Assembly (NCBI RefSeq): GCF_008000775.2
Contig: NZ_CP042905.2
Location: 4,050,001-4,082,000, forward strand
Direction of reading: 5' to 3'
Length of the DNA: 32,000 nt
Source: Promethearchaeum syntrophicum
Lineage (GTDB): Archaea; Asgardarchaeota; Lokiarchaeia; Sigyniarchaeales; Promethearchaeaceae
Under the pieces are notes generated by a model. The model saw nothing but the letters and a program-made list of their open reading frames with translations, did no database searches and had not been told where the DNA came from. A program made the position numbers and the translations under genes. Of this stretch, positions 8,326 through 29,300 are shown piece by piece (positions within the stretch are counted from its first letter, which is position 1; each line of letters begins with the position of its first letter).

Positions 8326-8444
8326 TAGGTTCAACCGAATTCTTCGATATATTCATCAATTCTTATTAAGCAAAAAATTTTTTGCCTTTCGAATTTTAAT
8401 TTTCATAAGGAATTAGAAAATTCTTGAAAAAAGGAGTCATCAGA

Positions 8445-12064: not shown

Positions 12065-12883
12065 TTACTGAAATTCCGGAGGTAATTGCACGGTGATGAA
12101 TTGGCTATTCACGGGGTTTCGTAGTAAATTGTTAATTAAGTCATAGTGAAGTTTGTATGGTCCGATCATATACACCAACTGGTGATTATCAGCAATCATT
12201 TCTTGCATGTCGGGTAAAATGCGAAATCCAGTAAATACGTCGTTTTCATTATTTACGGGACCTCCTGTGAACTCTATCGGATGTTTTAGTTGTCCTCCTA
12301 CCTTTGAATTGCCAATTGCTACTATATCCATCTTTGATCTGAAACTATCAAGACTTCCTTTGTGAGTGAAGAAGTGACTATTTACATTCTTGTGCTCCTT
12401 TAGCCATGGAGTGATTTTATCATCAGAGGTTGTTTGGTAATCAATAATCTTCTCAATTTCTATCCATCCCACAATGTAAACTCGCTGGGTCCCTTCAATA
12501 AAATCACCGTTCTCCCACTTCTGCATCCTAGCAAAAATTACTAATAAATCACCTGATTCAAGCTGAGATAACATCTTGGGAACGTTATTTTGATGATTTT
12601 GGCTTGAATTATTGTCACCGTATGTTTTATGGACAAAATCTGGATCAAAATGGGCTAATGAATGGTTCTCCAGCCACCTTCTTCTGGGGATATACTCAGA
12701 CAGAAACTTTCCTGTGGTGCCGAATATTTGGTCAAATCGTGGCCCGATTTCTCTATCTTCTGGAATGGGGATAAGTTCATACCCTTTTATTTTGCCGTCT
12801 TCATTCTCAAACGCGGGATTGTAAAACCCATTTTCCCCTCTGTCTGCAAAGACACAGATTCCATATGCTTTCATTTTTTTCAT
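12065..12883 (-). CDS. hypothetical protein, function unknown
   Basis: 272-aa ORF with its own upstream AT-rich TATA-like stretch near 12924-12932. The N-terminus 'YGICVFADRGENGFYNPAFENEDGKIKGYELIPIPE...HFDPDF...TYGD...GDLLVIFA' faintly recalls small nucleotide-modification-associated (Nmad-like) proteins. That resemblance is an unverified memory. Confidence 0.55.
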   Translation of the reverse strand: MKKMKAYGICVFADRGENGFYNPAFENEDGKIKGYELIPIPEDREIGPRFDQIFGTTGKFLSEYIPRRRWLENHSLAHFDPDFVHKTYGDNNSSQNHQNNVPKMLSQLESGDLLVIFARMQKWENGDFIEGTQRVYIVGWIEIEKIIDYQTTSDDKITPWLKEHKNVNSHFFTHKGSLDSFRSKMDIVAIGNSKVGGQLKHPIEFTGGPVNNENDVFTGFRILPDMQEMIADNHQLVYMIGPYKLHYDLINNLLRNPVNSQFITVQLPPEFQ

Positions 12884-13080: not shown

Positions 13081-13250
13081 TTGCCTGGCTCACAACCAAG
13101 CCAGACATGTGGAAAATAGAGAGTTGTTGAAAAAAGTTTGGTAGTTCCTACATCTTTGATTCGTGGTTGTGAAATGTGGGGATGCTACGATGCGATAGAC
13201 AATTTTTTCTTGATCAAATCTGATCATCCATACGTCTACGATGGATAATT
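13081..13250. ncRNA. candidate structured non-coding RNA or regulatory element downstream of the giant RuvC gene (strand undetermined)
   Basis: Noticeably more G+C than the flanking intergenic DNA. Hairpins: ctggct(13085-13090)/agccag(13099-13104), and atccat(13226-13231)/atggat(13241-13246) with an inner cg/cg pair. Repeated 9-mer TCACAACCA at 12973-12981 and 13090-13098, with its reverse complement at 13164-13172. ATGTGG occurs twice (13107, 13174) and CTACGATG twice (13185, 13236). There is no transcript evidence. Confidence 0.25.
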
Positions 13251-13405
13251 ATATTAAGAAATTAATGATATATAAATATTTCGTTAATCTATTAGCGGGA
13301 ATAAGAAAATGAGAAAAAATACGCATTATAACCTGAATATCGCTGATTTTACAATAAAAAAACATTGGAAAAGATTTTCGAATGGAAAGAACGTTGGATT
13401 TTTGA

Positions 13406-16400
13406 TTAGATGTTAGAGTAAATTTCGGTAAATCGTTTTAGATCTTTATCATCAGAGGTTGGACTTAGCAATCCTTGAAGCTTTTTGATAATTTTTTTGA
13501 AAGATTTGATTTGTTTTGATTCTTCACAATAATCATTGCGCTTCTTTAGAGTGTTGATTAATAATGTGAATTCTGAGTTTGATAAATTTTTGAACGAAAA
13601 GTAAATATTTTCATTTTCTTTTGAATATGTATGTTCACTGTTAACATCCTCCACGTAAATATTTTTTATTTTGTGAGATAGAACATTCGATAATTGTGTG
13701 ATGAGCGTGTTAAACTGATTTTTTATCTTCTCTTGAGATTTTATTGGAAATCTTGTTTCACGAGCAATCCATAAATTGATTATTTTTGCATAATATATGA
13801 TGGGATCATAATTATGGATGTTTGCGGAAGCGTTGATGTCCCTATTGGCGTAAGTTTTATAATCTGAGCAGTGAAAAACAATACCTGATTGGGAGAAAAT
13901 AAAGACAAGAATTGTTTTTTTATCTGTTTTTTTATTTGTTTTTAGAAGGAAATTTTCTGTATTGATTTTGTTTAAAATTCTTTTGTAATCCCAGATCTGA
14001 AGATCGGCTTTTTTGTATTTGGGGCCCGTTATTTTGACTTTATTTATTTCAGTCGGTTTTTCGGGAGCATGTAAAATTTTATTGTTTTTTCTAATATATT
14101 TGAGTTTATTGGCATTATCTTTGGACAAAACCTCACTTGGAATTGTTATTAGATATCCCTTTAATCCTTCTTTTCCACAAACAGAACATAATTTACTTGT
14201 ATAGGCGGGAGGAACTGTTTTGAGTAAAAATCCGGATAAATTGCTTTTTTCTTCAAGATAATCTTTAAAATTTCCTCGAAGCCAACGAGCGGCGGCCTCT
14301 GAAAATTTACTTCCTTTTTTTGCTTGAAATCCCCTTAAATCTTCGATATAAATCACAGTATCGTCGTTTAAATGTTTTTTAAGATTATGTGGGGAATTAG
14401 AACTGGATTTTTTTGATTTAACATAGTCTGCAATAACCTCTATACTTTGACGAATTGACGTATCCGCTATGTTTTGCTCTTTAGTATTGATTTTCTGTTT
14501 ATAATTTAGGTAGTTTATTCTGAAATAAGAGGGTTTTTTTTTGATGTAGGTGAGGTCCAATTTTTTCTGGAATTGGCTTGCAGACGAAGATAATTTTTTG
14601 GTTTTTTTTATCATTTTATCTATTGATTTATTGATTTCATCAAATGAATCAATGCTTGTGTTTTTGGTATCTCCTTCTAGGGCATCGTAATTTAGAAATT
14701 CTCTTAGCCCTAAATCTATTCCGAGTTTGTTTTTAACATCTAAACCATCTTTAGACATATAAGATGTGGGCTGAATAAAAGGAACAGCACAACCTACCGA
14801 CAAAATGATTTTACCATTGGGTTTAATTGAAACAATGACTGATTTTAGTGGTGAAGAAAGTAGCTGCTTGTAAGGAGTCGGTGTTTTTCTGTATAATAAA
14901 GAAATGAAGGCAGAAATAATTCTTTTGAGATTTTCGGTACGGGGATCTCTACCAAGGTGGAATTTTTTATTTGATTTTAAAGACGCGGTTACCCAATTAT
15001 AAAATATTATCAAAGTATCAATTATAATTATAAATTCGGCAGAAGTTGTGATGATATTAAGGTTTTTAAACTTTTCAATAGTTTTAGATACACTTTTCAT
15101 TTTTTCTAATTCATCTTTCTTCGAATTAAGTGTTAACGTTTGTATTGATGTTAAAGTTTTCTTTCTTTCTAATTTTTTTATCTGGGTATTTATTTTTGTG
15201 ATTTCAGGTTGTAAAAAAACATCGAAAAATTTTGCGTAATTGTAGTAGAGGGATCGAATAGTCTGAAAATCAACAGAACCGAATTCTTTATTTTTCAATT
15301 TTTTTAATTCATTTTTCTTCGATTTCAACATTTCCTGCATTTGCTGAACCCAGATTTTTATTTCCTCTCTTCTTTCTATTTCTTCAATTTCATCATCAAA
15401 TGTAGCAATTTCGTATTCCATTTCTTCAATTTCGCCCTCTAGTTCTTCAATTTCATTTTCATACGCTTCAATTTTACCTTCTAAATCCTTAATTTCGGGA
15501 GTGAATTTAAGGATGCGGTCCTTCATTTCTTTAAAAATCATGTCTGTATTTTCATATGCTGAGAAAAATTGTTTGAATTTTAACCAAATATAGTTTAATG
15601 GAGGTCCTGTAGAATTATTATCATCAAAGTAGGCTATTGTGAAATTTTTCCCTTTTTTTGAATCATCACATATCTTTGAAGTCCAAAAATTTTGATTTTT
15701 TTCATCTGGAGGATGTGTATTAAGAAGAGAATCGGTTAAATCTTTAAATTCTTGAAAAATCCTCCAATTTTTTGAACTGGAAGCGTTTTGGCTATTTTTG
15801 AATTGGTTTTCGGTTTTAAGACCGAATTTAGATGTTAGTAAATAATAATTATATATTTCGGTATTAGGAACTTTTACAGGGATAAATATCAGAAGATAAA
15901 TTTGGCGAAGAATATCGGTTTCTTCTTGTCTATTATAATGACCAACCATATAATAATGGTAACTCTTTGATTTTCCTACTCTGCTACTTGAAAGCAAAGA
16001 TTGGAGAGAGTATGATTCATATTTTTTCAATTCATCTAATTTTTCTAAAGTAATTTTTTTGGTAAAAATTTCGAAATTGGTCTTCCTAAAATTTGGTCTT
16101 TTCAATAAATGATTAAGTAAAAAATGATTTTCAATAGCCTCTTTTTTAGTAATATCCAGTTTCTTACTAATCTCATCATAATTATCCATGGTTTCTTCTG
16201 AAATATCGAAAGGGTTCTTAATGTCAAGGTGTTCGGTTTCTTTATCGATTTCAAAAAAATTATCGAAAATTAAAACTTCTTTTGGAAATTCGGAAAATAA
16301 TTTTTTTTCTTCATATAAACTCTGCTTGATTTTGTTAATGTCTTTAAGCGATGAAATGGAATAATCACGAGATTTTAAAAATTTCTTTGTGAGAAGAAAA

Positions 16401-19400
16401 GTTCGATTGTCTTTTTCCCAATTATCTTTAATCATTCCGGGAGTAAATTCGATTCCTTTAAGCCAATTAACGAGTTCCTTAGAGTTTTTTATATGATCAG
16501 ATGATATGTATTTTTTTTTTGAATCGAGTTTGATTACGTGATGACATAAATAATTCAATTGTCTATGATCATGCCAAACTTTTTTCCAATCAAAAACAAT
16601 ATCGCCATCCTTATCCTTGAAAACAATTTCTTTATATTCTTTCATGCATTCGGTCCAAGAATTTAGGTTTGTATTTTCCAGACCGATATGTTTTAACTTA
16701 AAATTTTGCTTCCATTTGTATATTTTATCAGTGTTGATAATAGGGTAATTGTTTTTTTTTATGGTTCTATATATTATTTTTGATATATCACGTTCCGATC
16801 GGATTATTTTTGAAAAAACACGATGGAAAGAATCGTCATCGTTTTCAATTTTAATTGGATTCAAATATAGATATTCATTATTATCGAAGTCCATGAAATT
16901 CTCAATGATTTTTAGAATTTTAGTTAAATCTTCATTGATTCCAAAATCCGAAACTATTTCTTTTGTAATCTCTTTGTATTCGATCTTGATTTTGGCGGCA
17001 ATGTCCTCAAAATCTTTAACCCATGGTTGGCGGCGTTTTACCCTATTGGTTTCTTGTATTATTGATTTTAGCGATTTTACAATTCCTGAACTTTTTAATT
17101 GGGGGTTGTTTAGTAGGAGACTTATGATAATTTTCAGGTTTTTTATTTGTTCATTGAACCACAATTCCCGAGATTCCATAATATTATTTAATGTGGAAAA
17201 CAAAGGGTTAGTTCGTTCAAATTCAGGAATTTCATCCTTATTTATAAGTAATTCTAAAAAATCCTCATTCTGAAGCGAATCTGAATTTTTAAAGAATTTC
17301 CAATGTTCTTTTGAATCATTTTGAAGGTTAATCAGTTCTTTTTTTGATTTGTTCAATTCGCTTTTAATTACAAGACATTTCTCACAAGATACCGCATAAT
17401 TATCTACCAGTTCTTCCACACATTTTAAGAGTGTAAGCCCTTGAGAAAAATGGATGTATTGAATAGGTGATTTTTGTTTTGTGAGAAAGGATTCTGATAT
17501 AATGTCAACGCTTAAAGCAATGATCTGTAAAATTTGTTTTTTATGCTTCTTCTCATACACAATGTTATTCAAATTACCATAATTGGTATTATTCAGTTCA
17601 TAGTATTGATTTTTTAAAGAATTGATTAATTCATTAAAGAAATTGTCTGTTGTGGGTAGTATCTTTGAAAGTTTAGAAGGAAAATTTGTTAAGTTTATTG
17701 ATTTTTCTTCTATGTTTTTTCCTTTTTTCAAGATAATCTTATTTTTTCCCTTCTTTGGAACTATTAAATCAACATAATTATAATCATTACATGAATATAT
17801 TTGAGGAGAATTTTTACCGAATTTGAAAAGATCTTCTTCATCTTCTGTATAAAAATCACCAGTTTCTGAAAAGAAAGCGTATTTGAGCCCGTAATTTGTA
17901 AATTTATTAAAAAGATTATTAAAATTATTGCTGATGGTAATTTTTTTTTTAATGTCTAAATTTTCCAGCTCTTCTTCTGATTTTTCATCTGGAATTAAAG
18001 ACGAAAAAATGGAAAAATCACTTGTGGTTTCGATCATTTCGAGATATTTCCTATAGAAATTATTAAGATCTTCGTGGAATTCTTTGAAAAGAGGATTAAG
18101 TTTTTTTGTTTTTGGATCAATGATATGAAACGCAATTTCTGAGCGGTTTTTTTTAATAATTTCTCGATTAAGAGATTTAAAAACGTTTTTATTAAACCTA
18201 ACTAAAGGATTGAATTTGGTTTCACTATTTTGAATAAATGTAAGAGGTGATGGGGTTTTAATCAACCCTAATGCATGAGAAAAAGGTTTTGATCCAAATG
18301 TTTTTTCTGTGGTTCTATTTAAATTTTGAAAAATTGCATTCTTTACTTCTTCATTTTTTTTGAAATGTTTTTCATAAATTTTTTTTCGGTTTTTTTTGAT
18401 TTTGTAAAGAGATTTTTCGTGTTTTGATAGGTATATATCAAGAATATCAGAAAAATCCTCGGGGCTTGGAAATACTAGAGTGGAATTTATTTTGGAATTA
18501 ACTTTATTGAAAAATTGAACATAATCAATTTTCCAGCTCTCGAAAGTCTGTAAAAATGTTATGGATTCGTCATCAGGTAATAATTTTTCTAATTTTCTTA
18601 ATTCTTTTTCTAATTCCTTTTCTTTTTCTTCTAGTTTTTTTTTTTTCTCTTCATCAGAACCATCTAAATTCTTTTTAAATCTTTTTAATTTCGATTCGGA
18701 TTCCTTATTTAGAAGTTCTCCAAATTTCTTTTTTAAATTAGATAAAATTTTTGATAGATCATCTGAAAATAAAGAAAGATCTTCATCACAATAAAACCCT
18801 TGAACATTCTCCGAAAACCTAAATTGCTGAGATATGTGAGCAAAATTAAAAATATTGTTATAAATATCAAAGTATGATGGATTTAATTTCAGTTTAGATC
18901 GTTTGGACACATAACTAAGCAAATTTCTGTAAATTTCGTTTCGTTTGAAAATTTTGTTTTTAGAAGTCTGAAGAGATTTTAGATGATTGTTAATGTCTTT
19001 CTCGTCAAAATTAAAGGGAATTTTTTTTAAATCAATGTTTTTACTATGAATTTTATCGTGAATCGATTTAATTGTTTCTGTATCTTTGGGATTTTTCGTC
19101 TTGAAAATATTTCCTGCACTCATAGTAAGGGTTCTAAAAATATTTCCAATCTGATAACGGTGTTTTCTTATTGAAAGATTAATTACTTTGGGATCGGGAT
19201 CTTGAATAAAAACATAAAAATCGCTATTTGGACGCATGCAGTGAGCCAATTCTCTCATATCCATGCCAGGATCTATATCATCCATGCTGAGTTCAGGATA
19301 AAGTACCTCATTATTATATGGATCGTCAGGATCTGTATGAGGACCTTTTGGGATAAGTATGTTTTGAAGGATATACAATGGAGAATCGGGGCTAAGAACA

Positions 19401-19678
19401 ATTTTTTTATTTCGTTTGTAATCAAAATAGTCATAAGTAACCTGTTCCGGCTTTTCTAAACCTAAAATTCTATGAATTCCGTATTTGATGGTAAATTCCT
19501 TAAGGGAAATACAATCCAAACTCATATTGCATGGCTCATTTACTATTAAATTACGAATTTGAATCGGAACATCAGTAATTATTTTTCCTTTTTTATCCAA
19601 TTTGAAGTAATCGTGCTCGAATGAATAATAATCGTGATCTTCTGGGTATTCGGAGGGGTTGGGATTTTCAATGGTCAT
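13406..19678 (-). CDS. giant (2,090 aa) protein with a C-terminal TnpB/Cas12-like RuvC nuclease module and an unrecognised ~1,550-aa N-terminal region
   Basis: The ORF is an uninterrupted 6,273 nt in very AT-rich DNA, where chance ORFs are short. The C-terminal layout matches TnpB/Cas12: '...KIILSVGCAVP...NKLGIDLGLREF' (RuvC-I, D1655, nt 14714-14716); 'DTVIYIEDLRG' (RuvC-II, E1779, nt 14342-14344); 'PPAYTSKLCSVCGKEG' (YTSxxCxxCG zinc-ribbon entry, C1831/C1834); 'YANRDINASANI' (RuvC-III, D1947, nt 13838-13840). The N-terminal part shows only charged coiled-coil stretches, for example 'EEKKKKLEEKEKELEKELRKLEKLL' and 'LEGKIEAYENEIEELEGEIEEMEYEIATFDDEIEEIERREE'. Confidence 0.75.
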   Translation of the reverse strand: MTIENPNPSEYPEDHDYYSFEHDYFKLDKKGKIITDVPIQIRNLIVNEPCNMSLDCISLKEFTIKYGIHRILGLEKPEQVTYDYFDYKRNKKIVLSPDSPLYILQNILIPKGPHTDPDDPYNNEVLYPELSMDDIDPGMDMRELAHCMRPNSDFYVFIQDPDPKVINLSIRKHRYQIGNIFRTLTMSAGNIFKTKNPKDTETIKSIHDKIHSKNIDLKKIPFNFDEKDINNHLKSLQTSKNKIFKRNEIYRNLLSYVSKRSKLKLNPSYFDIYNNIFNFAHISQQFRFSENVQGFYCDEDLSLFSDDLSKILSNLKKKFGELLNKESESKLKRFKKNLDGSDEEKKKKLEEKEKELEKELRKLEKLLPDDESITFLQTFESWKIDYVQFFNKVNSKINSTLVFPSPEDFSDILDIYLSKHEKSLYKIKKNRKKIYEKHFKKNEEVKNAIFQNLNRTTEKTFGSKPFSHALGLIKTPSPLTFIQNSETKFNPLVRFNKNVFKSLNREIIKKNRSEIAFHIIDPKTKKLNPLFKEFHEDLNNFYRKYLEMIETTSDFSIFSSLIPDEKSEEELENLDIKKKITISNNFNNLFNKFTNYGLKYAFFSETGDFYTEDEEDLFKFGKNSPQIYSCNDYNYVDLIVPKKGKNKIILKKGKNIEEKSINLTNFPSKLSKILPTTDNFFNELINSLKNQYYELNNTNYGNLNNIVYEKKHKKQILQIIALSVDIISESFLTKQKSPIQYIHFSQGLTLLKCVEELVDNYAVSCEKCLVIKSELNKSKKELINLQNDSKEHWKFFKNSDSLQNEDFLELLINKDEIPEFERTNPLFSTLNNIMESRELWFNEQIKNLKIIISLLLNNPQLKSSGIVKSLKSIIQETNRVKRRQPWVKDFEDIAAKIKIEYKEITKEIVSDFGINEDLTKILKIIENFMDFDNNEYLYLNPIKIENDDDSFHRVFSKIIRSERDISKIIYRTIKKNNYPIINTDKIYKWKQNFKLKHIGLENTNLNSWTECMKEYKEIVFKDKDGDIVFDWKKVWHDHRQLNYLCHHVIKLDSKKKYISSDHIKNSKELVNWLKGIEFTPGMIKDNWEKDNRTFLLTKKFLKSRDYSISSLKDINKIKQSLYEEKKLFSEFPKEVLIFDNFFEIDKETEHLDIKNPFDISEETMDNYDEISKKLDITKKEAIENHFLLNHLLKRPNFRKTNFEIFTKKITLEKLDELKKYESYSLQSLLSSSRVGKSKSYHYYMVGHYNRQEETDILRQIYLLIFIPVKVPNTEIYNYYLLTSKFGLKTENQFKNSQNASSSKNWRIFQEFKDLTDSLLNTHPPDEKNQNFWTSKICDDSKKGKNFTIAYFDDNNSTGPPLNYIWLKFKQFFSAYENTDMIFKEMKDRILKFTPEIKDLEGKIEAYENEIEELEGEIEEMEYEIATFDDEIEEIERREEIKIWVQQMQEMLKSKKNELKKLKNKEFGSVDFQTIRSLYYNYAKFFDVFLQPEITKINTQIKKLERKKTLTSIQTLTLNSKKDELEKMKSVSKTIEKFKNLNIITTSAEFIIIIDTLIIFYNWVTASLKSNKKFHLGRDPRTENLKRIISAFISLLYRKTPTPYKQLLSSPLKSVIVSIKPNGKIILSVGCAVPFIQPTSYMSKDGLDVKNKLGIDLGLREFLNYDALEGDTKNTSIDSFDEINKSIDKMIKKTKKLSSSASQFQKKLDLTYIKKKPSYFRINYLNYKQKINTKEQNIADTSIRQSIEVIADYVKSKKSSSNSPHNLKKHLNDDTVIYIEDLRGFQAKKGSKFSEAAARWLRGNFKDYLEEKSNLSGFLLKTVPPAYTSKLCSVCGKEGLKGYLITIPSEVLSKDNANKLKYIRKNNKILHAPEKPTEINKVKITGPKYKKADLQIWDYKRILNKINTENFLLKTNKKTDKKTILVFIFSQSGIVFHCSDYKTYANRDINASANIHNYDPIIYYAKIINLWIARETRFPIKSQEKIKNQFNTLITQLSNVLSHKIKNIYVEDVNSEHTYSKENENIYFSFKNLSNSEFTLLINTLKKRNDYCEESKQIKSFKKIIKKLQGLLSPTSDDKDLKRFTEIYSNI

Positions 19679-19727
19679 AGTATATCATATCCTTATTCTG
19701 TTGTTGGAAATTTTTTTAGGATGATGC

Positions 19728-19913
19728 TTATAAAAAATATAACTGGGTATCTTCTGGATTTTCGGGATCGGAAATGCGAATAGTTACAAAATATGGGCTA
19801 TCTGGTTCCATAAATTTAAGTAAATTTTGCACGGTGGGATTTTCATATAAGATTTCGGGGCTGAGATCTTGAACTGGTTCGTTTTTAGCGTCTTCATTTT
19901 TTTGATCTTTCAT
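19728..19913 (-). CDS. small acidic hypothetical protein (61 aa), cassette member
   Basis: Sits in a 262-nt gap between two long same-strand genes, 27 nt after the upstream stop and 49 nt before the giant gene's start. No motif recognised. It is short, so its coding status is uncertain. Confidence 0.45.
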   Translation of the reverse strand: MKDQKNEDAKNEPVQDLSPEILYENPTVQNLLKFMEPDSPYFVTIRISDPENPEDTQLYFL

Positions 19914-19940
19914 GTTTTTTTCATCTTGTTTTTTTTTTGA

Positions 19941-22223
19941 TTATTTTAGACTCACTCTTTTCCCGTTTCTGACCTTTTTAATCTCTACATTATGGCGGTT
20001 TTTTAAATGAGTTGAATGAGTTGAAAATTTTTTAACTATTTTCAAACTATCTTTTGTCACGATCGAAACTGTTACTTCTTTGTTCTCAGGCAATTGGAAA
20101 ATATTTCGAAATTTTTCGGATGTGAAATATTCCTGTAAAGATTTATTTTGAAATAGGTTGGAATTTTTAATATCCGAACTCAGTTTTTTGACCGCTCGTA
20201 AATAATCCGCTCTTTTGTAGTCAAAATTACGAACAATCGTCGGGAAATTGGTCACGTATAAATTATGGTTTTTAAAATAATGTGAAACAAACGGCAAACT
20301 CTGTCTTACCATGAACTGTTTGCGATCTTTATCTGTAATGGGATTTTGAATGGCTAAGATTTTATCTTTTTTGGCGAAGGTATCCCAAGCTTCTCGCACA
20401 GTCATATCCACAAGATCGAATTTTTCAACATCTATCTCGAAATAATGCCCAAGTTCTTTGATTGAAAAGGACTTTTGGGTTCTATTTATTTTAACCCCGT
20501 AATATAATATTTCTGCATCGGGAACCACGAAATCAAGGGCGACTTTAACCATAGGCGATAGTAAAAAGGTTCTCATGGGCGTGTCAGAAAGAATGAAACC
20601 GGTTGGAACTTTCTTTTTTAATAAATCGGAGAGAATAGTAAGGAGTTGGGGGCGATAAATGTCTTCATTAAATGCTGCCGCTTTCCAAAGTCGCATAAAC
20701 CGATTAAGGCCGATAGGATATAAATTAGGAAAATCCATAGCAATTACACGCACTTCTCTGGAAAGAGTAACATTGCCTGCCATTAAATTCCGTAAATACA
20801 TTTTGCGATCGAATAACATATCGAAGAAATTATTATCGCTTACCAATGCGTGTTTATATAATCCATTACCAAATTTTTCCCAAATCTTTTTAATTGCAGG
20901 ATCGGATATGTTCCAAATGTCCCGATATGCGCCCTTAACAGCGATTCCAAGACCATAAGCCACGATTGCGAAGGGGATAAGTTCCATAAACTGCGGAATT
21001 TCGAAGAAATATAGCGACTTCATGCGAATATCTCCAGGCATTGGAATGGCTTTTTGGAGCCTTTTTAGTTTATAATCGAGCTTTCTCTGATATCGATCCC
21101 TTTCATTTTCGATTCGTTTTATTTGCACTTTGATTTGTTTTATTTTCTTATCCACACGCGCAATTTCGGTATCGGCACGCGCTACCATATATACTAAATC
21201 CTTTAGTTCTTCGGTGGCATTTTTACGCTTTTTTGCTCGCTCTCTTATTTTTCGTTCTTTTTCTTTTCGCCTTTGTTCTTCTATTTTTTTATTTCGGGCG
21301 ATATTATCGTCAAGTTGATTCATCCAATCGCTTTTTCTCTGGCGGGATTTTTTTCTTTGGGCTTCAATTTCTGCAATTTCGGCCCAGCGTTTTATTTCTT
21401 GGAGGTGCCTTTCTTCTTTTAGTAGTTTTTCTTCCTCAGCACGGATCCGTAAAAATTCATTAAAATGTAATTCTGTTTTTTCCAAAACTTTTATCCAATT
21501 AATATCTTGATGTTTCACCAACCATTCCGCCCATTCTTCGATACTGATTATGGATTCAGGTTCCGCTGCTTGTTTTTTAGTTGTGGGCCAAATTTTAAAT
21601 CTGATTTTTGCCTTTCTAAAATAATGAATTGCAATCGGAACTTCGTTTTCACCTTCTAATTGCCAATATGTATAAGGTTTAAGAACAATTTTATTCCATC
21701 CATGCAGTGATCTTAAATTAAAATTGGCAAACAGGCTCGTTCCCATTTCCTTTTGCATTTGGTGCAAGAAGGAATGGCTTAAATCATCTTCGTGTTCGAG
21801 ATAATAAGTAACTACCCATTTGGCAGGAAAAGTATAACCATCATACATGAAATTATTTCGATGTTCGAACTGCAATCGTTCTTCCGTCTGGAACATAACG
21901 GCCATGTCCTCAATCAATTTTATTTTTTCAATATCCATTTGATCGTGAAATATGTCCGCTTCATCGATGTTATTCTGGTTGTAATTGATCCGCTGCCTGC
22001 GATATTTTGATGTTGAATCACAATTATTTGACGGGATTTTATTGCGTTTATATCCTACGGCATAGGGAAATTTTTGTTGAGGGCGATCCAAAGCGAGCCA
22101 TTTTTCATCATCTTCAGAATTATCTTCTGCAATAGAAGGATCGAAGTCTTCTTGTTTCTCTTTAATGATGTTTTCCAGAACATATTTATCACGATAATTG
22201 TCGGGTTCGTTATCTTTTTCCAT
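19941..22223 (-). CDS. hypothetical ~760-aa protein with a central highly charged coiled coil, cassette member
   Basis: Long ORF. I place the start at ATG 22221-22223 ('MEKDNEPDNYRDKY...'), which leaves a 25-nt gap after the upstream 108-aa ORF. The track's start at 22346 would overlap that ORF by 98 nt. The central segment 'RAEEEKLLKEERHLQEIKRWAEIAEIEAQRKKSRQRK...EEQRRKEKERKIRERAKKRK...IKVQIKRIENERDRYQRKL' is K/R/E-rich. It is followed by the hydrophobic segment 'FMELIPFAIVAYGLGIAV'. No known domain recognised. Confidence 0.6.
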   Translation of the reverse strand: MEKDNEPDNYRDKYVLENIIKEKQEDFDPSIAEDNSEDDEKWLALDRPQQKFPYAVGYKRNKIPSNNCDSTSKYRRQRINYNQNNIDEADIFHDQMDIEKIKLIEDMAVMFQTEERLQFEHRNNFMYDGYTFPAKWVVTYYLEHEDDLSHSFLHQMQKEMGTSLFANFNLRSLHGWNKIVLKPYTYWQLEGENEVPIAIHYFRKAKIRFKIWPTTKKQAAEPESIISIEEWAEWLVKHQDINWIKVLEKTELHFNEFLRIRAEEEKLLKEERHLQEIKRWAEIAEIEAQRKKSRQRKSDWMNQLDDNIARNKKIEEQRRKEKERKIRERAKKRKNATEELKDLVYMVARADTEIARVDKKIKQIKVQIKRIENERDRYQRKLDYKLKRLQKAIPMPGDIRMKSLYFFEIPQFMELIPFAIVAYGLGIAVKGAYRDIWNISDPAIKKIWEKFGNGLYKHALVSDNNFFDMLFDRKMYLRNLMAGNVTLSREVRVIAMDFPNLYPIGLNRFMRLWKAAAFNEDIYRPQLLTILSDLLKKKVPTGFILSDTPMRTFLLSPMVKVALDFVVPDAEILYYGVKINRTQKSFSIKELGHYFEIDVEKFDLVDMTVREAWDTFAKKDKILAIQNPITDKDRKQFMVRQSLPFVSHYFKNHNLYVTNFPTIVRNFDYKRADYLRAVKKLSSDIKNSNLFQNKSLQEYFTSEKFRNIFQLPENKEVTVSIVTKDSLKIVKKFSTHSTHLKNRHNVEIKKVRNGKRVSLK

Positions 22224-22248
22224 TTTGATTTTCTCTCGATTATGTTTC

Positions 22249-22575
22249 TTATAATGGATTAAAAAAATCGATACTTTGCTGTATTTTTTCAATTTTGGTA
22301 GGTGTTTCTTGATTTTCATAAATTTCTTGTTCTTTGTTATTTTCATCTTTAATATTTCGGGCTCTTGTGAGTCTACTCATAAAATCAAATACAATTTTCC
22401 CATTTTCATCATTATCATCCCCCAATTTGCTTCTTATATGCTTTATGAGATCCAGAGCTTTATACATTGAATCTGGATCGTCAAATAATCTTTGATACCA
22501 GCGGGAAAATTTATGTTTATAACAATCCATATCTAAAAATGCCGAATTTCTGTGGAGTTTGTTTTCTTGTTCCAT
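22249..22575 (-). CDS. hypothetical 108-aa protein, first gene of the minus-strand cassette
   Basis: ORF directly downstream of the divergent intergenic region and co-directional with the three following genes. No motif recognised. Confidence 0.5.
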   Translation of the reverse strand: MEQENKLHRNSAFLDMDCYKHKFSRWYQRLFDDPDSMYKALDLIKHIRSKLGDDNDENGKIVFDFMSRLTRARNIKDENNKEQEIYENQETPTKIEKIQQSIDFFNPL

Positions 22576-23276
22576 TTTTTTTTCTGTTCCTTTTTTGTTT
22601 ATTTTTCGCTTTTTTGCTCTATAATAATCACCGATTTAGCGGATCCTGAATACCACTGTTTTTCCAAAAAACTAAATTTCCCCCGATTTTTTTGAAAAAT
22701 GATTTATACTAATTATATTTGAGCTAAACAACCAATATAAATGTTAATGGGCTCAATGTATCCTATATTGACTGAATGTTCTCAATAGATAAGTTCATAT
22801 TTAAAGAATGTTCCGATAGAGTACTTTGGATCTCTATCGGGTACTTTGGATCTCTATCGGGTACTTTGAGCCCAATATTTAAATGAACAATTGAAAAAAT
22901 TGAAGAATAAAGAGTATTTTGAAAATTCGTTAAAAATTTATCTCATATGGAACGTATATTAAACTAAATCCTTATTAATTAAATAATGTGAAGTAGTTTG
23001 TTATGATTTTGATTAAGCGTCCCCTGTTTTTTATAAGAATATTTGTCAATAGGAAAAAAACACAAATTCTGTTACATTGTTTGTAATATTAAATGGTGTA
23101 AAAAAATCTTCCTAAATAATGGTTTCTCGAAAGTCATAATACCCGAGACAATTTCGACTAAGTTTTACTAACTAACTATAAGATGATGGATAATTTTTTA
23201 AACATCATTTCTAAAATATTAATCAGAAAGAAACAAAGCATGTATTGAGTATTATTTTTTAAATTTTTGAAATGAG
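22576..23276. promoter_or_regulatory. divergent promoter/regulatory region between the RuvC cassette and the DISARM-like operon
   Basis: A 701-bp non-coding gap flanked by two outward-facing operons. TATA-like A/T boxes occur on both sides: 'ctataataat' at 22619-22628 for the minus-strand operon and 'ttttttaaat' at 23255-23264 for the plus-strand operon. It contains the tandem/inverted repeat at 22813-22873. Exact promoters are not determinable from sequence alone. Confidence 0.5.
22813..22868. repeat. 20-bp direct tandem repeat (2.4 copies) preceded by an 8-nt inverted arm
   Basis: GTACTTTGGATCTCTATCGG occurs at 22821-22840 and 22841-22860, with a partial third copy GTACTTTG at 22861-22868. 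CCGATAGA (22813-22820) is the reverse complement of TCTATCGG (22833-22840 and 22853-22860). The outer pair GGGCTCA (22749-22755) / TGAGCCC (22867-22873) brackets the block. Confidence 0.9.
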
Positions 23277-26200
23277 ATGTTAATGGTTATGAGCAAGGTA
23301 GATTTCCAAATTGGGCAAGTAGTTGATGCACGAAACCGACTCTGGAGGATAGAACGAATAATTACAAAAAAATCAGAGTTTGAAGAAGATGCAAATATAA
23401 ATCTATTAGAAGTATCGAGTATTGATGGAGTTCCAAGTCGGTGCAATTTATTATTAAATATAGTTAAAACATCTGAAGGCAAGGAAATTGTTGAAACAAT
23501 CGAAAATATCAAAGAAGCCAAAATTTTAAAACCAGATACTTCTAAATTAGGTAATCCCGATTTTCAAAAGGTTCTCATTCAAGCCATGCGTTATGACTTG
23601 ATTTTTGGAACTTCTAACTTTATAAGTTTAGCCAACAGTCGTGTGATTCCTGTTTCGTATCAGATGGTCCCAGTTCTAATGGCTATGGCTCAGGAAAAGG
23701 TTCGTCTTCTAATTGCAGATGATGTTGGGTTAGGTAAAACTATCGAAGCAGGTTTAATTATTCAAGAATTATTAGGAAGAAGAAAAATCAACCGTGTATT
23801 ATTTGCGGTCCCAGCTAACCTCAGAGAACAATGGCGGTCAATTATGCAAAGATTCTTTGGAATTGAAGCAAAAATTCTCTCAAGCCAAACAAGAAGAAAA
23901 TTGCAAAAAGAACTCTTGGTAGGCGGTGATCCTTGGGGTTATTACAATTTTCTGATTACTTCTCAAGATTATTTAAGTCGCCAGGAAATCCTTGAGAGAG
24001 CAATCCAGTTTAAATTTGATATGGTTGTTATTGATGAAGCCCATAATATTGCCAAACCTCGATATATGATGAGATCAGGGGGGAACAAAAAAAGCAAACG
24101 AAAAAATAAGATGGCAGTCAGTCTATCAAAATATCCACATTTGCTTTTACTGACAGCCACCCCGCATAATGGTTATCACGAAAGTTTTGCCAGTCTAATA
24201 CATTTATTAAATCCGGAATTGGTTGATGACAAAAACGATTGGGCAATTGATCCAGAAAATGCAAAACGGTTTATATGCCAGCGTCGTAAAGCTGATGTCA
24301 TGAAATGGATGGAAGATGATAAGAAAAGAAAATTATTCCCGACTGTCCATCGCATCGAAGAGTTTATTATACCTTCCGTTGAATTTAAGGAAGTAATTAA
24401 GTGTCTTGACCAATACAAAGACCTTGTGTTTAAATCTGCAAAAGAAGATGGAAAAGGAGTCCGTTTTATTAAGTTCTGGGGAGTATTACACATATATCGT
24501 CGTTTAATAAGTAGTCCCCAAGCTTTACTTAAGACAATTTATAACAAGATCAGAGACTCAAATGAAAAGACAGACACCTCAGGGAAGAAAATTAAACTTC
24601 GGGAAGAAGAAATCCAAGATATTTTAGAGAAAGTTCGTAGCAACGTGACTGATACCAATACAGATGAAAACCTTGAAGAATATGAAATAGACCGAAAAAA
24701 TGATTCTGAATTCGGGAGCGAAAAATTAGGACCTGATCTGATTAAAAAACTTAGTGAACTTGAGACACTCACAAAAAAATGTTTGGGACGTAAAAAAGAC
24801 CCCAAATTCAATTACTTCTATAATAATACTCTTCAGCAATTGTTAAATTTCAACAAAAAGATAATAATATTTACCCGTTATATTGATACAGCTGATTACA
24901 TCTGTTTGGAATTAACTAAAATTGTACAAAAGAAGTCCCTCATGAAAGGATTTGAAATCATCGGTGTTGTGGGTACAGATCCCATCCATGTAAGAGAAGA
25001 AAAATATAGAAAATTCCTTGGTCTTGAGAAAGGTATCATGGTGGCTACAGACTGCATGAGTGAAGGAATCGACTTGCAATATTCTTCCAACATCGTTGTA
25101 AATTATGAATTAACTTGGAATCCAAATCGATTGGAGCAACGAAATGGAAGGGTGGATCGGTTTGGACAGCCAGAGAAGGATGTATATCTTCGCACATTGA
25201 TCATTAAAGAATCACTTGAGTTAGCTATTTTGGATCTATTATATCGAAAAATAAAAAACATTGGTGGAGATATGGGGTATATTCCCAAATATTTTGGTAA
25301 TATGGATTTAATTGGAGATATTTTAAACGATTATTTTGAAGAAGAAGAGGAATTTCGATTTGTAAAAACTAAACACGGTGCTAAGCAGCTTACATTGGAT
25401 AATTATGGAGTGTTTGCAGATGAAATGAAAGAAATGCTTAGCAACCATGTTGATAATAATATGAATAATATTATTAGTGAAGACTCTTTTTACGGACAAA
25501 CTGTTTTTGATTTCTCAGATGTGCAAGAACGAATGGACGAGATGGAAAAATCTATAGGAAATATTAATGGATTATTACTTTTTCTTCAAAAATCACTTCC
25601 CTTTTTCGATTGTTCTATTGAGCCAATGAAAAAATCGAATTTTCCTCCCAATGCAGTATTTAAAATTACTCTCAGTGATACTCTCCTCGAGATTATGAAT
25701 AAAGATGAGATTACTGGCAATGAGTGCATTATTACAACGGACCCATATTTTGGTGCAAAACAACAGGATATTGAAACATTGAGTTTAAAATCCCCAGTGT
25801 TAAATTCAATCATTAGTATTGTTAAAGAAAAAGGATTTATCACGACTCATGATTTTTATGGTCGAACCGCTGCTGCATCGAGTGATTTAATATCTGAGTT
25901 GACAGCGGTGCTTTATTACAAAATTCGCTATTTAGTCTCCACAAAGGAACAAAGCATAATGGAAGAATTGCTACCAATTGGATTGAAAATCTATGAAGAT
26001 AAACCACTCCTTAAGCGTGAGAAAACGGAGAAATTATGGACCCAATATACGTCTGGAAAAACTTCAGATTATCCTGGAATTGCAAACCAAGTAAAACAAA
26101 ATATAAAAGATCTATTCGATAGATCAGATTTTGATTCTGTTATTAAAAATGCCATTAAGAGTAATCTGTGCGTTGTGGTTGACAATTCAAGGAATCTTAT

Positions 26201-26318
26201 GAAGAATTTGCAAGCAAAGAACTTGGTTGATCTTGAAGACTTGAAAGGAATGGATGACATTTCTATAATTTCCTATGATCCTATTAGTGTAACTCTCTTC
26301 TATCCAGGAGGTTATTAA
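23277..26318 (+). CDS. SNF2-family helicase/ATPase (DrmD-like)
   Basis: SNF2 motifs: 'LIADDVGLGKTIEAG' (I), 'VVIDEAHN' (II, D253 at nt 24033), 'LLLTATPHNG' (III), 'ATDCMSEGIDLQ' and 'WNPNRLEQRNGRVDRFGQ' (VI). Three closely spaced ATGs (23277, 23283, 23289) make the exact start ambiguous. Confidence 0.9.
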   Translation: MLMVMSKVDFQIGQVVDARNRLWRIERIITKKSEFEEDANINLLEVSSIDGVPSRCNLLLNIVKTSEGKEIVETIENIKEAKILKPDTSKLGNPDFQKVLIQAMRYDLIFGTSNFISLANSRVIPVSYQMVPVLMAMAQEKVRLLIADDVGLGKTIEAGLIIQELLGRRKINRVLFAVPANLREQWRSIMQRFFGIEAKILSSQTRRKLQKELLVGGDPWGYYNFLITSQDYLSRQEILERAIQFKFDMVVIDEAHNIAKPRYMMRSGGNKKSKRKNKMAVSLSKYPHLLLLTATPHNGYHESFASLIHLLNPELVDDKNDWAIDPENAKRFICQRRKADVMKWMEDDKKRKLFPTVHRIEEFIIPSVEFKEVIKCLDQYKDLVFKSAKEDGKGVRFIKFWGVLHIYRRLISSPQALLKTIYNKIRDSNEKTDTSGKKIKLREEEIQDILEKVRSNVTDTNTDENLEEYEIDRKNDSEFGSEKLGPDLIKKLSELETLTKKCLGRKKDPKFNYFYNNTLQQLLNFNKKIIIFTRYIDTADYICLELTKIVQKKSLMKGFEIIGVVGTDPIHVREEKYRKFLGLEKGIMVATDCMSEGIDLQYSSNIVVNYELTWNPNRLEQRNGRVDRFGQPEKDVYLRTLIIKESLELAILDLLYRKIKNIGGDMGYIPKYFGNMDLIGDILNDYFEEEEEFRFVKTKHGAKQLTLDNYGVFADEMKEMLSNHVDNNMNNIISEDSFYGQTVFDFSDVQERMDEMEKSIGNINGLLLFLQKSLPFFDCSIEPMKKSNFPPNAVFKITLSDTLLEIMNKDEITGNECIITTDPYFGAKQQDIETLSLKSPVLNSIISIVKEKGFITTHDFYGRTAAASSDLISELTAVLYYKIRYLVSTKEQSIMEELLPIGLKIYEDKPLLKREKTEKLWTQYTSGKTSDYPGIANQVKQNIKDLFDRSDFDSVIKNAIKSNLCVVVDNSRNLMKNLQAKNLVDLEDLKGMDDISIISYDPISVTLFYPGGY

Positions 26319-26319
26319 A

Positions 26320-29300
26320 ATGGTAAAGATTTCCCCTTTGGAATATATCTCGTTAAGTGGTGGCTTATTTACAGAAAATTTGATTCTAAAAATTCGAGAT
26401 AAACCGGATACATATGAGGAAACTAGGTGGAGATCATTCGGAGAAAATTGGCAAGATGAAAAGAAGAAATATAAGGAAGTATGGGAATGGGCAAAACGAA
26501 GTTATGATATTTTTTCCAAAAATATTGATGATTGGTCAGTTGAGGAAAGGTTCAGTAAATGGATAAAGCCATTGCTTGAAAAATGCGGGCATATTCCAAA
26601 GATAAAAAAGAAAATTGATATTGACAGTTTATCGGAAGATGAGAAAGATAACATACTTAACAAAATTATTATATCCCATAAGTTTGAAAATACCCAAAAA
26701 GTCGTACTTCATTGTTGTATTGATAGTAATTTAGACGATAGAACAGAATCGAATTATCAAAAAAAATCCAATCATGATCATCTTCAACGATATATACTAC
26801 TCAAGGAAATGGTAAAATGGGGGTTTTTAACTAATGGTAAGAAATTTCGTATGTTGGGAGAATTTTCTAATATTTATTCCAAGGGCTATATCGAAATTGA
26901 CTTAGATTCCATCATAATTGGGCGTAATGAATCTGAATTCAAGGTTTTTTACATGTTAATTCATTCATCAAGGTTTAATGAAACCTATGGTCTTGATGTG
27001 TCAATCTGGATGAAAAAACAAGAGAAATTATGGCAAAGTTTATTAAAACAACATCAAAAAAATCCTAAAACCGTTTACATTGATGAAATTGCGATGTCCA
27101 AAGACACTTTAAAGATCTTTAAAACGTTTCTGGACGATCTTATAAAAAAAGCTCATAAATCTGGTTTAATGTCCATAAATTCATCAGAATCTGAGAATTT
27201 CATTAAATTACTTAAAGATTCTGATATAGAACTAAGTTCACATGGAAGAGAATTTTATTTAAAGATCTTTGAAAAAATTATCTCAGACATTAATGAAAAT
27301 AAATCTGCTTTTAATCGACTTCAAGATAGAAGTCAAACTGAAGGGGTTGAAGTCGGAAAAAAATTGAGAAAAAATGTCCACAATGCATTAGAATTGATGG
27401 GGGAAGATTTAATTCAATCAAATTCACATTTTTCTGAGGATATTGTCAAGGGAGATGTTGATATTAATGAATACTTTCGGGAACTTCTACGAATTGCCTA
27501 TAGGTTAATTTTTATTTTATACGCTGAAAGTAAAGATCTTCTACCTAGTGCGAATACAATATACCAATCAGAAATCGGATTAACCGAACTCAGAAAAAAG
27601 GCAGAATTACCAATACGAACCGATCAAAATAGAGATTTGTGGGAACGATTAAAAATATTATTTAACTTCATGTATGAAGGTAACACACCACTTGGGATTA
27701 ATGCCTTTGGAGGAGATTTATTTAATCCAGATAGAACTGTTATTATAACTGGTGATAAATATGGATTAGCACTAAACAATAGTACAATACTTTCGTTAAT
27801 CCGCGAGCTAACAATTGTGGAAATTGATGGGGCATTGCAACGAATAAATTATGTAGAGATTGGTGAAGAAGAAATAGGAGGTATTTATGAATCACTATTG
27901 GATTATATGCCCAGATATGTAAAGAAAGTCAGTCGAACTTACCATTTTATTTTAGAACCTATTGATACTGAAAGAAAAGGTTCAGGAACATATTATACTC
28001 CTAAAGGACTTATTGATATTATTTTAAAAACATCCCTAAAACCCATTGTTATAAACAAGCTTCATGGATTAAAAACTAAGAAAGAGAAATTAGATGCAAT
28101 TCTAAACCTAAAAATTTGTGATCCAGCTTGTGGAGGTGGATCTTTTTTACTGTCTGCTCTTGATTATTTGGGAAAAAAATATGCTCAAATTGAATCAAAT
28201 GAGGAATTTCCTTCTGAAGTTTTCTTAAGGTATGCTCGAAGAAATGTGTTACAGCATTGTATATATGGTGTAGATTTGAATCCAATGGCAATAGAACTTG
28301 CAAAAATATCTTTATGGCTTAAAGCATCAGTAAAAAATAGACCATTAACTTTTCTTGATAATCATTTGAAATTGGGAAATTCACTTATTGGTTTTTCAAA
28401 AAAAAAAGAAATAGGATCTATTCCGATTAAATCTTACAATATTGTGATAGGGGAAAAGAAGACAGGAATTCCCAATGAAAACAGAGAAAACCTGGATAAA
28501 GCAAGAGGTCGATTAAAAACTTTTAAAATATCTTCAGAAAAAGATACTAAAAAGACTATTCAAACTACCTTACTAGAACCTTTTGAAAAATCAGATAATT
28601 TAATTAAATCAGCAGAAAAAATATATGAAATGAATGAGGATAATTTATTAGAACAAAACAGGAAAATTGAATGTTATCTAAAATTAAAAAACACAAAGAG
28701 TTATATTAATTTAAATTTACAAGCTAATTTATGGACTAGTAGTTTTTTTTGGAATTTTCGTAAAAAATTTGTAGCTATTACACCAACTGATAAAGAAATA
28801 AATTATGCAAAGAAAGGTATTCTAAAGAATAATAGTGATATTGTTATCGAGGTGGAAAGACTTGCTAAAAATTATGGCTTTTTTAATTGGTTTTTAGAAT
28901 TTCCAGAAGTTTTTCAATCAGATAATTCAGGATTTGATTGTATATTGATGAATCCCCCTTGGGATGTTTTAGTCCTTCTTGAAAATGAATTCTTTGCAGG
29001 AAAATCTGATTATATAATAAATTCTCAGAATAGAGCAGAAAGGCAACTAAAAATTAAGGAATTAAAAGAAAAAAATCGAGAATTACATGATTTGTATGTT
29101 TCAGAATTTTCAAGAATTAAAAAAACCAGTCATTATTTCAAATTTTCTAAATTCTACGAAAAATCTTCTTATGGTTCTTTAAATCTTTTTGCACTATTTA
29201 TTGAAAGATCTTTATCACTTATTAACAAATCTGGTAATATTGGTACGATTGTACCTACCACACTGATCACTGGGGATAATTTGAAATCACTCTTTCAATA

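Follow-up and report, generated by a model that had tools for sequence, protein, structure and literature searches.

What is encoded by four tightly packed genes on the minus strand of the Promethearchaeum syntrophicum MK-D1 genome, one of which gives a protein of 2,090 amino acids (aa) with a RuvC nuclease near its C-terminus? The four open reading frames (ORFs), DSAG12_00289 to DSAG12_00292, were located in a stretch of 32,000 nucleotides (nt), called the window here and used for all positions below. A preliminary description of the window had taken them (108, 760, 61 and 2,090 aa) as one four-gene cassette and a candidate undescribed defence system, with an integrated mobile element or a virus fragment as the alternative. 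Our analysis led to another unit, composed of three parts and not of four genes: the 760-aa gene, the 2,090-aa gene (the giant gene below) and a 212-nt non-coding element at its 3' end. The reading which we favour, still tentatively, is that this unit is a lineage-restricted module derived from TnpB/OMEGA, which is probably RNA-guided and is, or recently was, mobile or selfish.

The giant gene (DSAG12_00289, 13406-19678, minus strand) was labelled in GenBank only as "zinc ribbon domain-containing protein". In its product, about 1,430 aa of N-terminal extension preceded a divergent TnpB-type RuvC nuclease, and a tail of 140 aa came after RuvC-III. The TnpB-homologous region (aa 1434-1960; 13799-15379, minus strand) was revealed by both NCBIfam and Pfam. 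NCBIfam model NF040570 (guided_TnpB) aligned through positions 37-354 of its 389 with aa 1434-1836 (E 5.8e-15), and Pfam PF07282 (Cas12f1-like TNB domain) aligned with aa 1803-1837 (E 9.7e-11, 42.1 bits, above the gathering score of 26.3). In addition, a PHROG transposase family (E 2.5e-15) and the Cas12f model of PADLOC matched the giant protein. The catalytic D-E-D triad of the split RuvC was intact, with D1655 in RuvC-I (GIDLG, 14714-14716), E1779 in RuvC-II (YIEDL, 14342-14344) and D1947 in RuvC-III (NRDINASANI, 13838-13840), all on the minus strand, and the three motifs were kept in L003, a related locus on a 13.6-kb Logan contig. The zinc ribbon (TNB, minus strand) was found between RuvC-II and RuvC-III, with a CxxC at 1831/1834 and H1936/C1937, and its two halves were separated by an insert of about 100 aa (13874-14170).

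Could the long N-terminal extension be a chance reading frame, or an expansion of a known kind? The ratio of non-synonymous to synonymous substitution (dN/dS, Nei-Gojobori) of the giant gene against L003 was 0.23, and the corresponding ratio of difference proportions (pN/pS) stayed at 0.2-0.5 in every 150-codon window, so the extension is constrained too. The 760-aa gene gave a dN/dS of 0.085 against its homologue in L002, a related locus from JGI, with purifying selection along its whole length; thus the two long ORFs are not there by chance. The best-conserved N-terminal block of the giant protein, domain A (aa 1-137; 19268-19678, minus strand), was 81% identical to L003. An acidic, heptad-like coiled coil (aa ~1380-1560; 14999-15541, minus strand) preceded the TnpB-like core and overlapped its start; this segment had a 21-nt tandem periodicity, and only weak coiled-coil-type matches to DUF4407, JetC and LmuB were obtained. 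Judging from the sequence, the extension is a true N-terminal fusion ahead of the TnpB core, and not an internal REC expansion of the Cas12 style.

Few known proteins could be related to this extension. The first 1,430 aa had no match in Pfam, NCBIfam, PADLOC, PHROGs or the PDB, whether searched whole, in segments or as profiles, and Pfam searches of four separate N-terminal segments with E up to 5 gave no credible domain. An exhaustive phmmer search of aa 1-1200 against 1.84 billion representatives returned 6 matches, all of them metagenome fragments from Promethearchaeum relatives. A word-index search found only the giant protein itself when the whole sequence was used and, among 8,000 candidates, nothing for its C-terminal 531 aa; the candidates were probably filled by low-complexity words rich in K, E and N. 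A His-rich conserved block (WHDHRQLNYLCHH, aa ~1035-1050) was considered as HNH-like and was dropped, with no model supporting it.

Which of the neighbouring genes belong with the giant gene was judged from the related loci, a small comparative base of few sequences, mostly metagenome contig fragments. The L002 contig carried a paralogue of domain B (the C-terminal domain of the 760-aa protein), a 763-aa gene, a gap of 27 nt and the giant gene up to the contig end, without a 61-aa gene. L003 carried a 760-like gene, a 267-aa paralogue, the giant gene and the 3' element, followed by LigB, a GNAT acetyltransferase and ribosomal S7/S12/L7Ae genes. L001, from a Promethearchaeota metagenome-assembled genome, carried a leucine-rich repeat (LRR) gene, a 434-aa gene and a 760-like gene up to the contig end, and L008, 95% identical to the window in nucleotides, carried the C-terminus of the 760-aa gene and the 61-aa ORF. 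The 760-like and giant genes were adjacent in L002 and L003 as in the window, with order and orientation kept, and they are a conserved adjacent pair.

A fusion between domains of two neighbouring proteins is classical evidence of their joint action. Such a fusion was observed in the 434-aa protein of L001 (L001_434), whose aa 4-121 aligned with aa 2-116 of the giant protein, within domain A (BLASTP, E 5e-12), and whose aa 160-320 aligned with residues 436-632 of the 760-aa protein, within domain B (E 2e-16). Because L001_434 joins domain A with domain B, the 760-aa and giant proteins may well act together, and this fusion argues most strongly for a partner working with the RuvC protein. Domain B was modular in its distribution and occurred in L001_434, in the 267-aa protein of L003 (L003_267, a paralogue of the C-terminal half of the 760-aa protein) and in the gene upstream of the 763-aa gene of L002.

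The partner gene (DSAG12_00291, minus strand) was placed at 19941-22223. Its ORF extended to 22346, where a first ATG 41 codons earlier would give 801 aa; the start at 22223 is correct, since an 81%-identical homologue begins at the equivalent Met and GenBank annotates the 760-aa form. The N-terminus of the protein was acidic; it was followed by a very basic coiled coil (aa 243-392, as two long predicted helices), a hydrophobic helix (aa 411-429, borderline with a Kyte-Doolittle value of 1.67) and domain B (aa 430-760). In aa 290-400, 35% of the residues were K or R, and from composition alone the protein could be taken to bind nucleic acid. Only two homologues were found in an index of 5.8 billion sequences (P0008, 81% identity; P0009, 59%), domain-B profile scans of GTDB genomes and IMG/VR gave no relatives, and Pfam, NCBIfam, the PDB, PADLOC and PHROGs had no match for the product. 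On the L008 contig (884 bp), the first ~100 nt had no match to the window; within its positions 1-149 the 5' stretch encoded ...VVFRRDRNRRGGGVALYVKN..., which resembles a fragment of the endonuclease/exonuclease/phosphatase type and leads into a 760-like C-terminus; the junction might stem from a chimeric assembly or from an insertion within the 760-like gene.

Do the two small ORFs belong to the same unit? The ORF listing confirmed the layout of the preliminary description: gaps of 25, 27 and 49 nt when the 760-aa gene starts at the ATG at 22223, and a spacer of 701 bp (22576-23276) up to the divergent gene at 23277. Co-transcription of the four ORFs is plausible because the gaps are short and no TATA-like box was found in them, so that no obvious internal promoter was present. 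The 108-aa ORF (DSAG12_00292, 22249-22575, minus strand) was the only member of its own 90%-identity cluster, had no match in Pfam, NCBIfam, PADLOC or PHROGs, and showed no tblastn or hidden Markov model similarity in any related locus, while its equivalent position in L001 and L002 was taken by a domain-B paralogue. Judged by these searches, it is an orphan of this genome alone and does not belong to the conserved unit. The product of the 61-aa ORF (DSAG12_00290, 19728-19913, minus strand) likewise had no match in the same four collections; the preliminary description had recognised no motif in any of the three partners of the giant gene. Its sole homologue was in L008; it was not present in L002, and in L003 the 267-aa domain-B paralogue was found instead. 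Between the window and L008 this ORF had 6 non-synonymous and 1 synonymous differences (ratio 1.37), and thus no sign of selective constraint, whereas the C-terminus of the 760-aa gene gave 0.23 for the same pair. Its coding status is doubtful, and it is a lineage-specific insert outside the conserved unit. We propose that both small ORFs are lineage-specific fillers at places where relatives carry domain-B paralogues.

That all four genes form one undescribed anti-virus defence operon tied to a defence island is therefore very unlikely. Such an operon would suit the tight co-directional spacing, the adjoining genes for DrmD, DrmMI and a DEAD helicase, and the retention of the 61-aa ORF in the 95%-identical strain. 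It does not agree with the loss or replacement of both small ORFs in relatives, with the contexts of these relatives, which were LigB, GNAT and ribosomal genes in L003 and LRR and HicA-like genes in L001 in place of defence genes, or with PADLOC, whose models recognized nothing in the cassette beyond the Cas12f-like RuvC core. Thus, of the earlier proposal that the RuvC protein works with its three neighbours, the 760-aa gene stood, being kept in the same order beside the giant homologues, while the four-gene system was largely refuted by giant homologues that occur without the 108-aa and 61-aa neighbours.

The third part of the unit was a conserved non-coding element directly past the stop codon of the giant gene (13194-13405, minus strand, 212 nt, with a core at 13194-13278). 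It was recognized by blastn against L003, where the alignment passed the stop codon and ended abruptly at window position 13194 and L003 position 8871. Identity was 166/210 overall (79%), 77/83 in the last 85 nt (93%) and 0/9 beyond the break. In the coding sequence next to it, synonymous differences amounted to a proportion of 0.53, near saturation, so with 93% identity beside it the element must be under strong constraint, and a coding function of the core is ruled out because it contains two 1-nt indels. Beyond the break, the window had an Nmad3 (nucleotide modification associated domain 3) gene on the same strand, and L003 had LigB on the opposite one; the two genes are unrelated, so the element serves no shared neighbour. 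It was single-copy in the window and in all loci compared, and Rfam gave no match.

The core contained a BRE/TATA-like sequence GAAATATTTATATA, hairpin 1 (ATCCAT/ATGGAT, 6-bp), hairpin 2 (GATCA/TGATC, 5-bp), an A-rich tract and TTGTCTATC. In L003 hairpin 2 was GATCT...AGATC, which amounts to one compensatory change from A:U to U:A. An oligo-T run 42-64 nt beyond the break, in both the window and L003, added weak support. The element is a candidate omega-RNA-like scaffold or mobile-element end, and its position and behaviour are as would be expected of a TnpB omega-RNA scaffold abutting its guide, or of the right end of a transposon. A covariance model of the 92-nt core, applied without filters to the window and to 8 loci, found only its two source sequences. 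The 22-mer at 13194-13215 had 0 matches in the GTDB representative genomes, not even in the source genome, which is thus absent or masked in this collection at least in part, so that its negatives say little on paralogues in MK-D1, and the putative guide of 21 nt past the break had no match in IMG/VR. As an observation apart, the 8-mer CATCGTAG in the loop of hairpin 1 (13236-13243, minus strand) occurred again from the second base past the break (13186-13193, minus strand; TCTATC before the break and GCATCGTAGC after it); it was not repeated in the L003 flank, and may be a coincidence or a trace of target choice.

Is the unit a stable part of the host genome? Three features which point to a selfish element of TnpB type, and which the preliminary description did not have, were revealed: the 3' non-coding element, the differing genomic contexts and decayed relics. 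On the "Prometheoarchaeum_2" contig (L010), positions 7533-8058 corresponded to giant aa 1048-1147 and 1263-1353 at ~50% identity, with an internal deletion and three in-frame stops. An isolated piece of the giant protein (aa 455-690) was found in L004 (247-933), and in L007 (87-734) the giant homologue was cut off after 215 residues; all three relics lay among unrelated genes. In L003 a single in-frame TAA near residue 933 (L003 ~5117-5122; window ~16880), in a poorly conserved, indel-rich linker, split the giant homologue into ORFs of 924 aa and 1,163 aa, each still conserved. Because of the relics, the L003 stop and the differing flanks, the pattern resembles the birth and death of a selfish element more than a stable host operon, although it is no proof of current mobility.

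The TAA in L003 could be a recent pseudogene mutation, the mark of a genuine two-protein version, or a sequencing error, and its site falls at a module boundary at giant residues ~930-950. A 30-aa sequence from TARA contigs (P0017), a supposed cluster-mate of the C-terminal half from L003, turned out to be unrelated.

A fixed host system would be the main competitor for the same two proteins: the 760-aa and giant genes as a domesticated TnpB derivative used in defence or regulation, with the 3' element as a guide RNA gene or a cis-regulatory sequence. The strong purifying selection on both proteins and the lack of a transposase in the window would fit it, as would the position of the window copy beside the DISARM-like operon and the Nmad3 gene. 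Exapted TnpB clades with dedicated partner genes have also been documented (PMC10691335), and a guide transcribed on its own would agree with the conserved TATA-like box in the 3' element. The defence context was not kept in L003 or L001, however; exapted TnpBs have so far mostly been catalytically inactive (PMC10691335) whereas the triad here is intact, the scattered relics and the in-frame L003 stop resemble the turnover of selfish elements, and the family occurs in a very narrow lineage. On balance we hold domestication to be rather unlikely. A more specific form is in our judgement unlikely: a two-component giant RNA-guided nuclease (760 and 2,090 aa) which the host would have taken over for a task of its own, for example defence or genome maintenance. 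The short guide RNA of this nuclease would come from an own promoter in the 3' element and would have a hairpin handle of ~50 nt and a variable 3' guide; the system would be distinct from OMEGA homing and from CRISPR, with the N-terminal extension adding a new activity.

A virus or plasmid origin was weighed in the same way. Orphan genes, an AT-rich region and defence genes alongside could suggest a fragment of an integrated virus or plasmid. Nevertheless, the only PHROG match was the TnpB-type 'transposase', and no viral hallmark genes were found with PHROGs. An IMG/VR scan with the giant protein gave no relatives, and tblastn of the RuvC core against PLSDB plasmids and INPHARED phages gave no match. 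There was no integrase, tRNA or att-like repeat, and the GC content of the cassette was about that of the surrounding genome. The viral alternative is thus extremely improbable. As far as all the collections searched reach, the family is restricted to Promethearchaeum and its close relatives.

How could such a unit work? According to the favoured reading, the C-terminal RuvC of the giant protein would cut DNA, directed by an RNA made from the 3' element, whose conserved hairpins would bind the RuvC/TNB region. The RNA scaffold would end at 13194, and a variable 3' part would read into the flanking DNA as the guide, as in TnpB omega-RNAs. The 760-aa protein might dock on domain A of the giant protein and aid nucleic-acid binding or assembly of the complex. 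The whole unit would be, or would have been, spreading selfishly; mobilisation in trans is a possibility, proposed because no transposase was seen. The neighbouring DISARM operon would be a coincidence.

Several results weigh against this module being an RNA-guided, mobile TnpB derivative. The guided_TnpB match reached 55.5 bits, below the curated cutoff of 100, and the second CxxC of the zinc ribbon, which is CxxC in L003, was HC in the window copy, so that one Cys was lost. AlphaFold models of giant aa 1-930 (5 sequences, predicted local distance difference test (pLDDT) 39.1) and of the 760-aa protein (3 sequences, pLDDT 36.4) were too poor for a fold search. Folding of the 3' element over the whole 236 nt was not beyond that of shuffled sequence (z = -1.06), its comparison included two sequences only (the window and L003), and a search of JGI metagenomes with the 21/22-mer at its end returned 2 chance matches without flank similarity and no further copy. 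As for mobility, no transposase, integrase, tRNA or terminal repeat was found within 32 kb, the left boundary of the unit was not definable, and ordinary loss of synteny could explain the differing flanks, as the organisms are ~30% divergent in protein.

The same results bear on whether RNA is involved at all. The 3' element might be no more than a 3' untranslated region, a terminator or a site of DNA recombination, with the RuvC acting as a structure-specific or protein-targeted nuclease within a large scaffold. This would be in line with an RNA structure that depends on one compensatory pair and that fold score, with the altered zinc ribbon and its ~100-aa insert, and with a huge N-terminal extension and a partner which could supply the targeting. 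Yet all TnpB, Cas12 and Fanzor nucleases characterised to date are RNA-guided (PMC10691335). In addition, the 3' element is exactly where TnpB omega-RNAs are encoded, is better conserved than the coding sequence, and ends as abruptly as a junction of scaffold and guide. A giant nuclease that works without a guide RNA is thus quite unlikely.

Known systems share some of these features. Like the TnpB of IS200/IS605 (TnpB/OMEGA), the giant protein has a split RuvC with the D-E-D triad, RuvC-II and RuvC-III being separated by a TNB zinc ribbon, and this locus has a non-coding element at the 3' end of the gene which stops at an unrelated flank, and decayed copies in relatives. A typical TnpB has ~350-550 aa, whereas the giant protein has 2,090 aa (five times the usual size), with the 1,430-aa extension and the 140-aa tail. 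It also differs by the insert in the zinc ribbon, the obligatory 760-aa partner, the lack of TnpA or another transposase nearby, and an RNA which is a candidate only. The residence of TnpB in a transposon with defined ends, together with TnpA, a serine recombinase or a DDE or Cas1-like enzyme, was not found in the window.

Cas12 nucleases (type V) resemble the giant protein in that helical regions have been added to a RuvC/TNB core of TnpB origin. The best match to a solved structure was 9KLN, a C2c1-type protein of 1,496 aa (profile E 0.007, ~50 residues); this Cas12b-like stretch was the only usable match in PDB searches with the whole giant protein, its C-terminal region and aa 1000-1400. 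Unlike type V systems, the locus had no CRISPR array or adaptation genes in 32 kb: cas1, cas2 and cas4 gave no matches with Pfam and NCBIfam, and Tandem Repeats Finder and a repeat search found no array. Moreover, the extra mass of the giant protein is N-terminal, before the WED-equivalent region, instead of consisting of REC insertions. Fanzor proteins also have a TnpB-type core with an N-terminal extension, and they are an obvious comparison given the link of Asgard archaea with eukaryotes; those of eukaryotes and giant viruses are far smaller than the giant protein and are carried by several kinds of eukaryotic transposon. Phmmer and profile searches of the PDB with the giant protein did not reach the solved Fanzor or TnpB structures.

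The exapted TnpBs (Sigma-TnpB, SpoIIE-TnpB and RHH-TnpB; PMC10691335) also have a tightly linked non-transposase partner gene and a restricted taxonomic range, but they are of normal size with mostly inactivated or rearranged sites, and the giant protein has a canonical one. In contrast to their partners, the 760-aa protein has no recognisable domain, and the signs of turnover suggest that the unit is not stably domesticated. Another Asgard comparison is the aloposons of Heimdallarchaeum, mobile elements whose giant genes are also preceded by smaller conserved genes (PMC8813620). Aloposons insert at tRNA genes, have a MinD/ParA-like ATPase and carry their giants of 3,000-6,000 aa as tandem twins, and TnpB is not mentioned for them (PMC8813620). 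With one giant of 2,090 aa, no tRNA and no ParA domain in the window, identity with an aloposon was rejected. In the 2023 survey of TnpB and Cas12, Asgard TnpBs occurred only with Cas1 homologues and the largest Cas12b had 1,888 aa (PMC10691335). In full-text literature no paper naming these locus tags or accessions was found, and TnpB was mentioned with Lokiarchaeia only in a 2017 review.

The flanks were as described before, according to domain searches. On the low-coordinate side, genes for RNase HII, an SDR protein, a thioesterase, DUF2804, fibrillarin, Nop5, PyrD/PyrK and ELP3 were followed by the Nmad3 gene (12065-12883, minus strand), which is co-directional with the giant gene and lies 522 nt past it. 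The Nmad3 gene is not part of the unit, since it is not present in L003; it may be a member of a local DNA-modification or defence neighbourhood. The Nop5/Nop56 homologue (6976-8334, minus strand) had a Lys-rich C-terminal tail from 15-nt tandem repeats (~8 copies, 6982-7104), and this tail (...KSKYQKSG...) recalls the KKE/D tails of eukaryotic Nop56/58.

On the high-coordinate side, the DISARM-like operon (23277-32000, plus strand) was composed of a DrmD-like SNF2 helicase (NCBIfam E 3.6e-108, 363 bits, under the equivalog cutoff of 610), a PglX/DrmMI-like methylase of 1,459 aa, and a DEAD/ResIII helicase which begins near 31000 and extends beyond the end of the window. The operon looks like a divergent class 1 DISARM of archaeal type. 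It is a mere physical neighbour of the cassette, a separate operon 701 bp away on the opposite strand; PADLOC gave no match for DISARM components among the cassette proteins, and L001 and L003 had no DISARM neighbours. The defence-island context assumed earlier was thus a property of the window and was not conserved. No tRNA, CRISPR array or Rfam family at gathering score was found in the 32-kb window, no window ORF had an integrase or transposase domain in Pfam or NCBIfam, and neither terminal nor att-like repeats were detected.

The 701-bp spacer contained a structured element of 133 nt (22745-22877, minus strand), identified by RNA folding and as an inverted repeat. Its fold had -37.1 kcal/mol with z = -5.46, and 0/200 shuffles folded as well. 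It was an imperfect inverted repeat with arms of 45 nt, with a 9-bp hairpin (CCGATAGAG/CTCTATCGG) and a perfect 20-nt repeat in 2.4 copies at 22821-22868 (Tandem Repeats Finder, 100% matches). It had no similarity in any related locus, and its sole Rfam match was a sub-threshold chance hit. Possible identities are a small RNA, an array of protein-binding sites, a miniature inverted-repeat insertion and the left end of the proposed mobile unit. A remnant of a 434-like gene was sought in the spacer and nothing was found.

Cas12 and Fanzor descend from TnpB, and the way in which TnpB grows and acquires partners is central to how RNA-guided systems evolve. The unit of P. syntrophicum belongs to a known kind, the TnpB/OMEGA derivatives; new are its exceptional size, its N-terminal fusion, its obligatory partner of unknown fold and its modular paralogues. 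The giant protein, enlarged by N-terminal fusion and with a canonical active site, exceeds the largest Cas12b of the 2023 survey (1,888 aa, PMC10691335). Since the host is the only long-cultured Lokiarchaeon, both the RNA and the protein are open to direct study. If the 3' element is a guide RNA, the unit would be both a programmable nuclease of new architecture and an Asgard mobile element of a new kind; if it is not, the unit would still be an unusual selfish gene family confined to one archaeal lineage.

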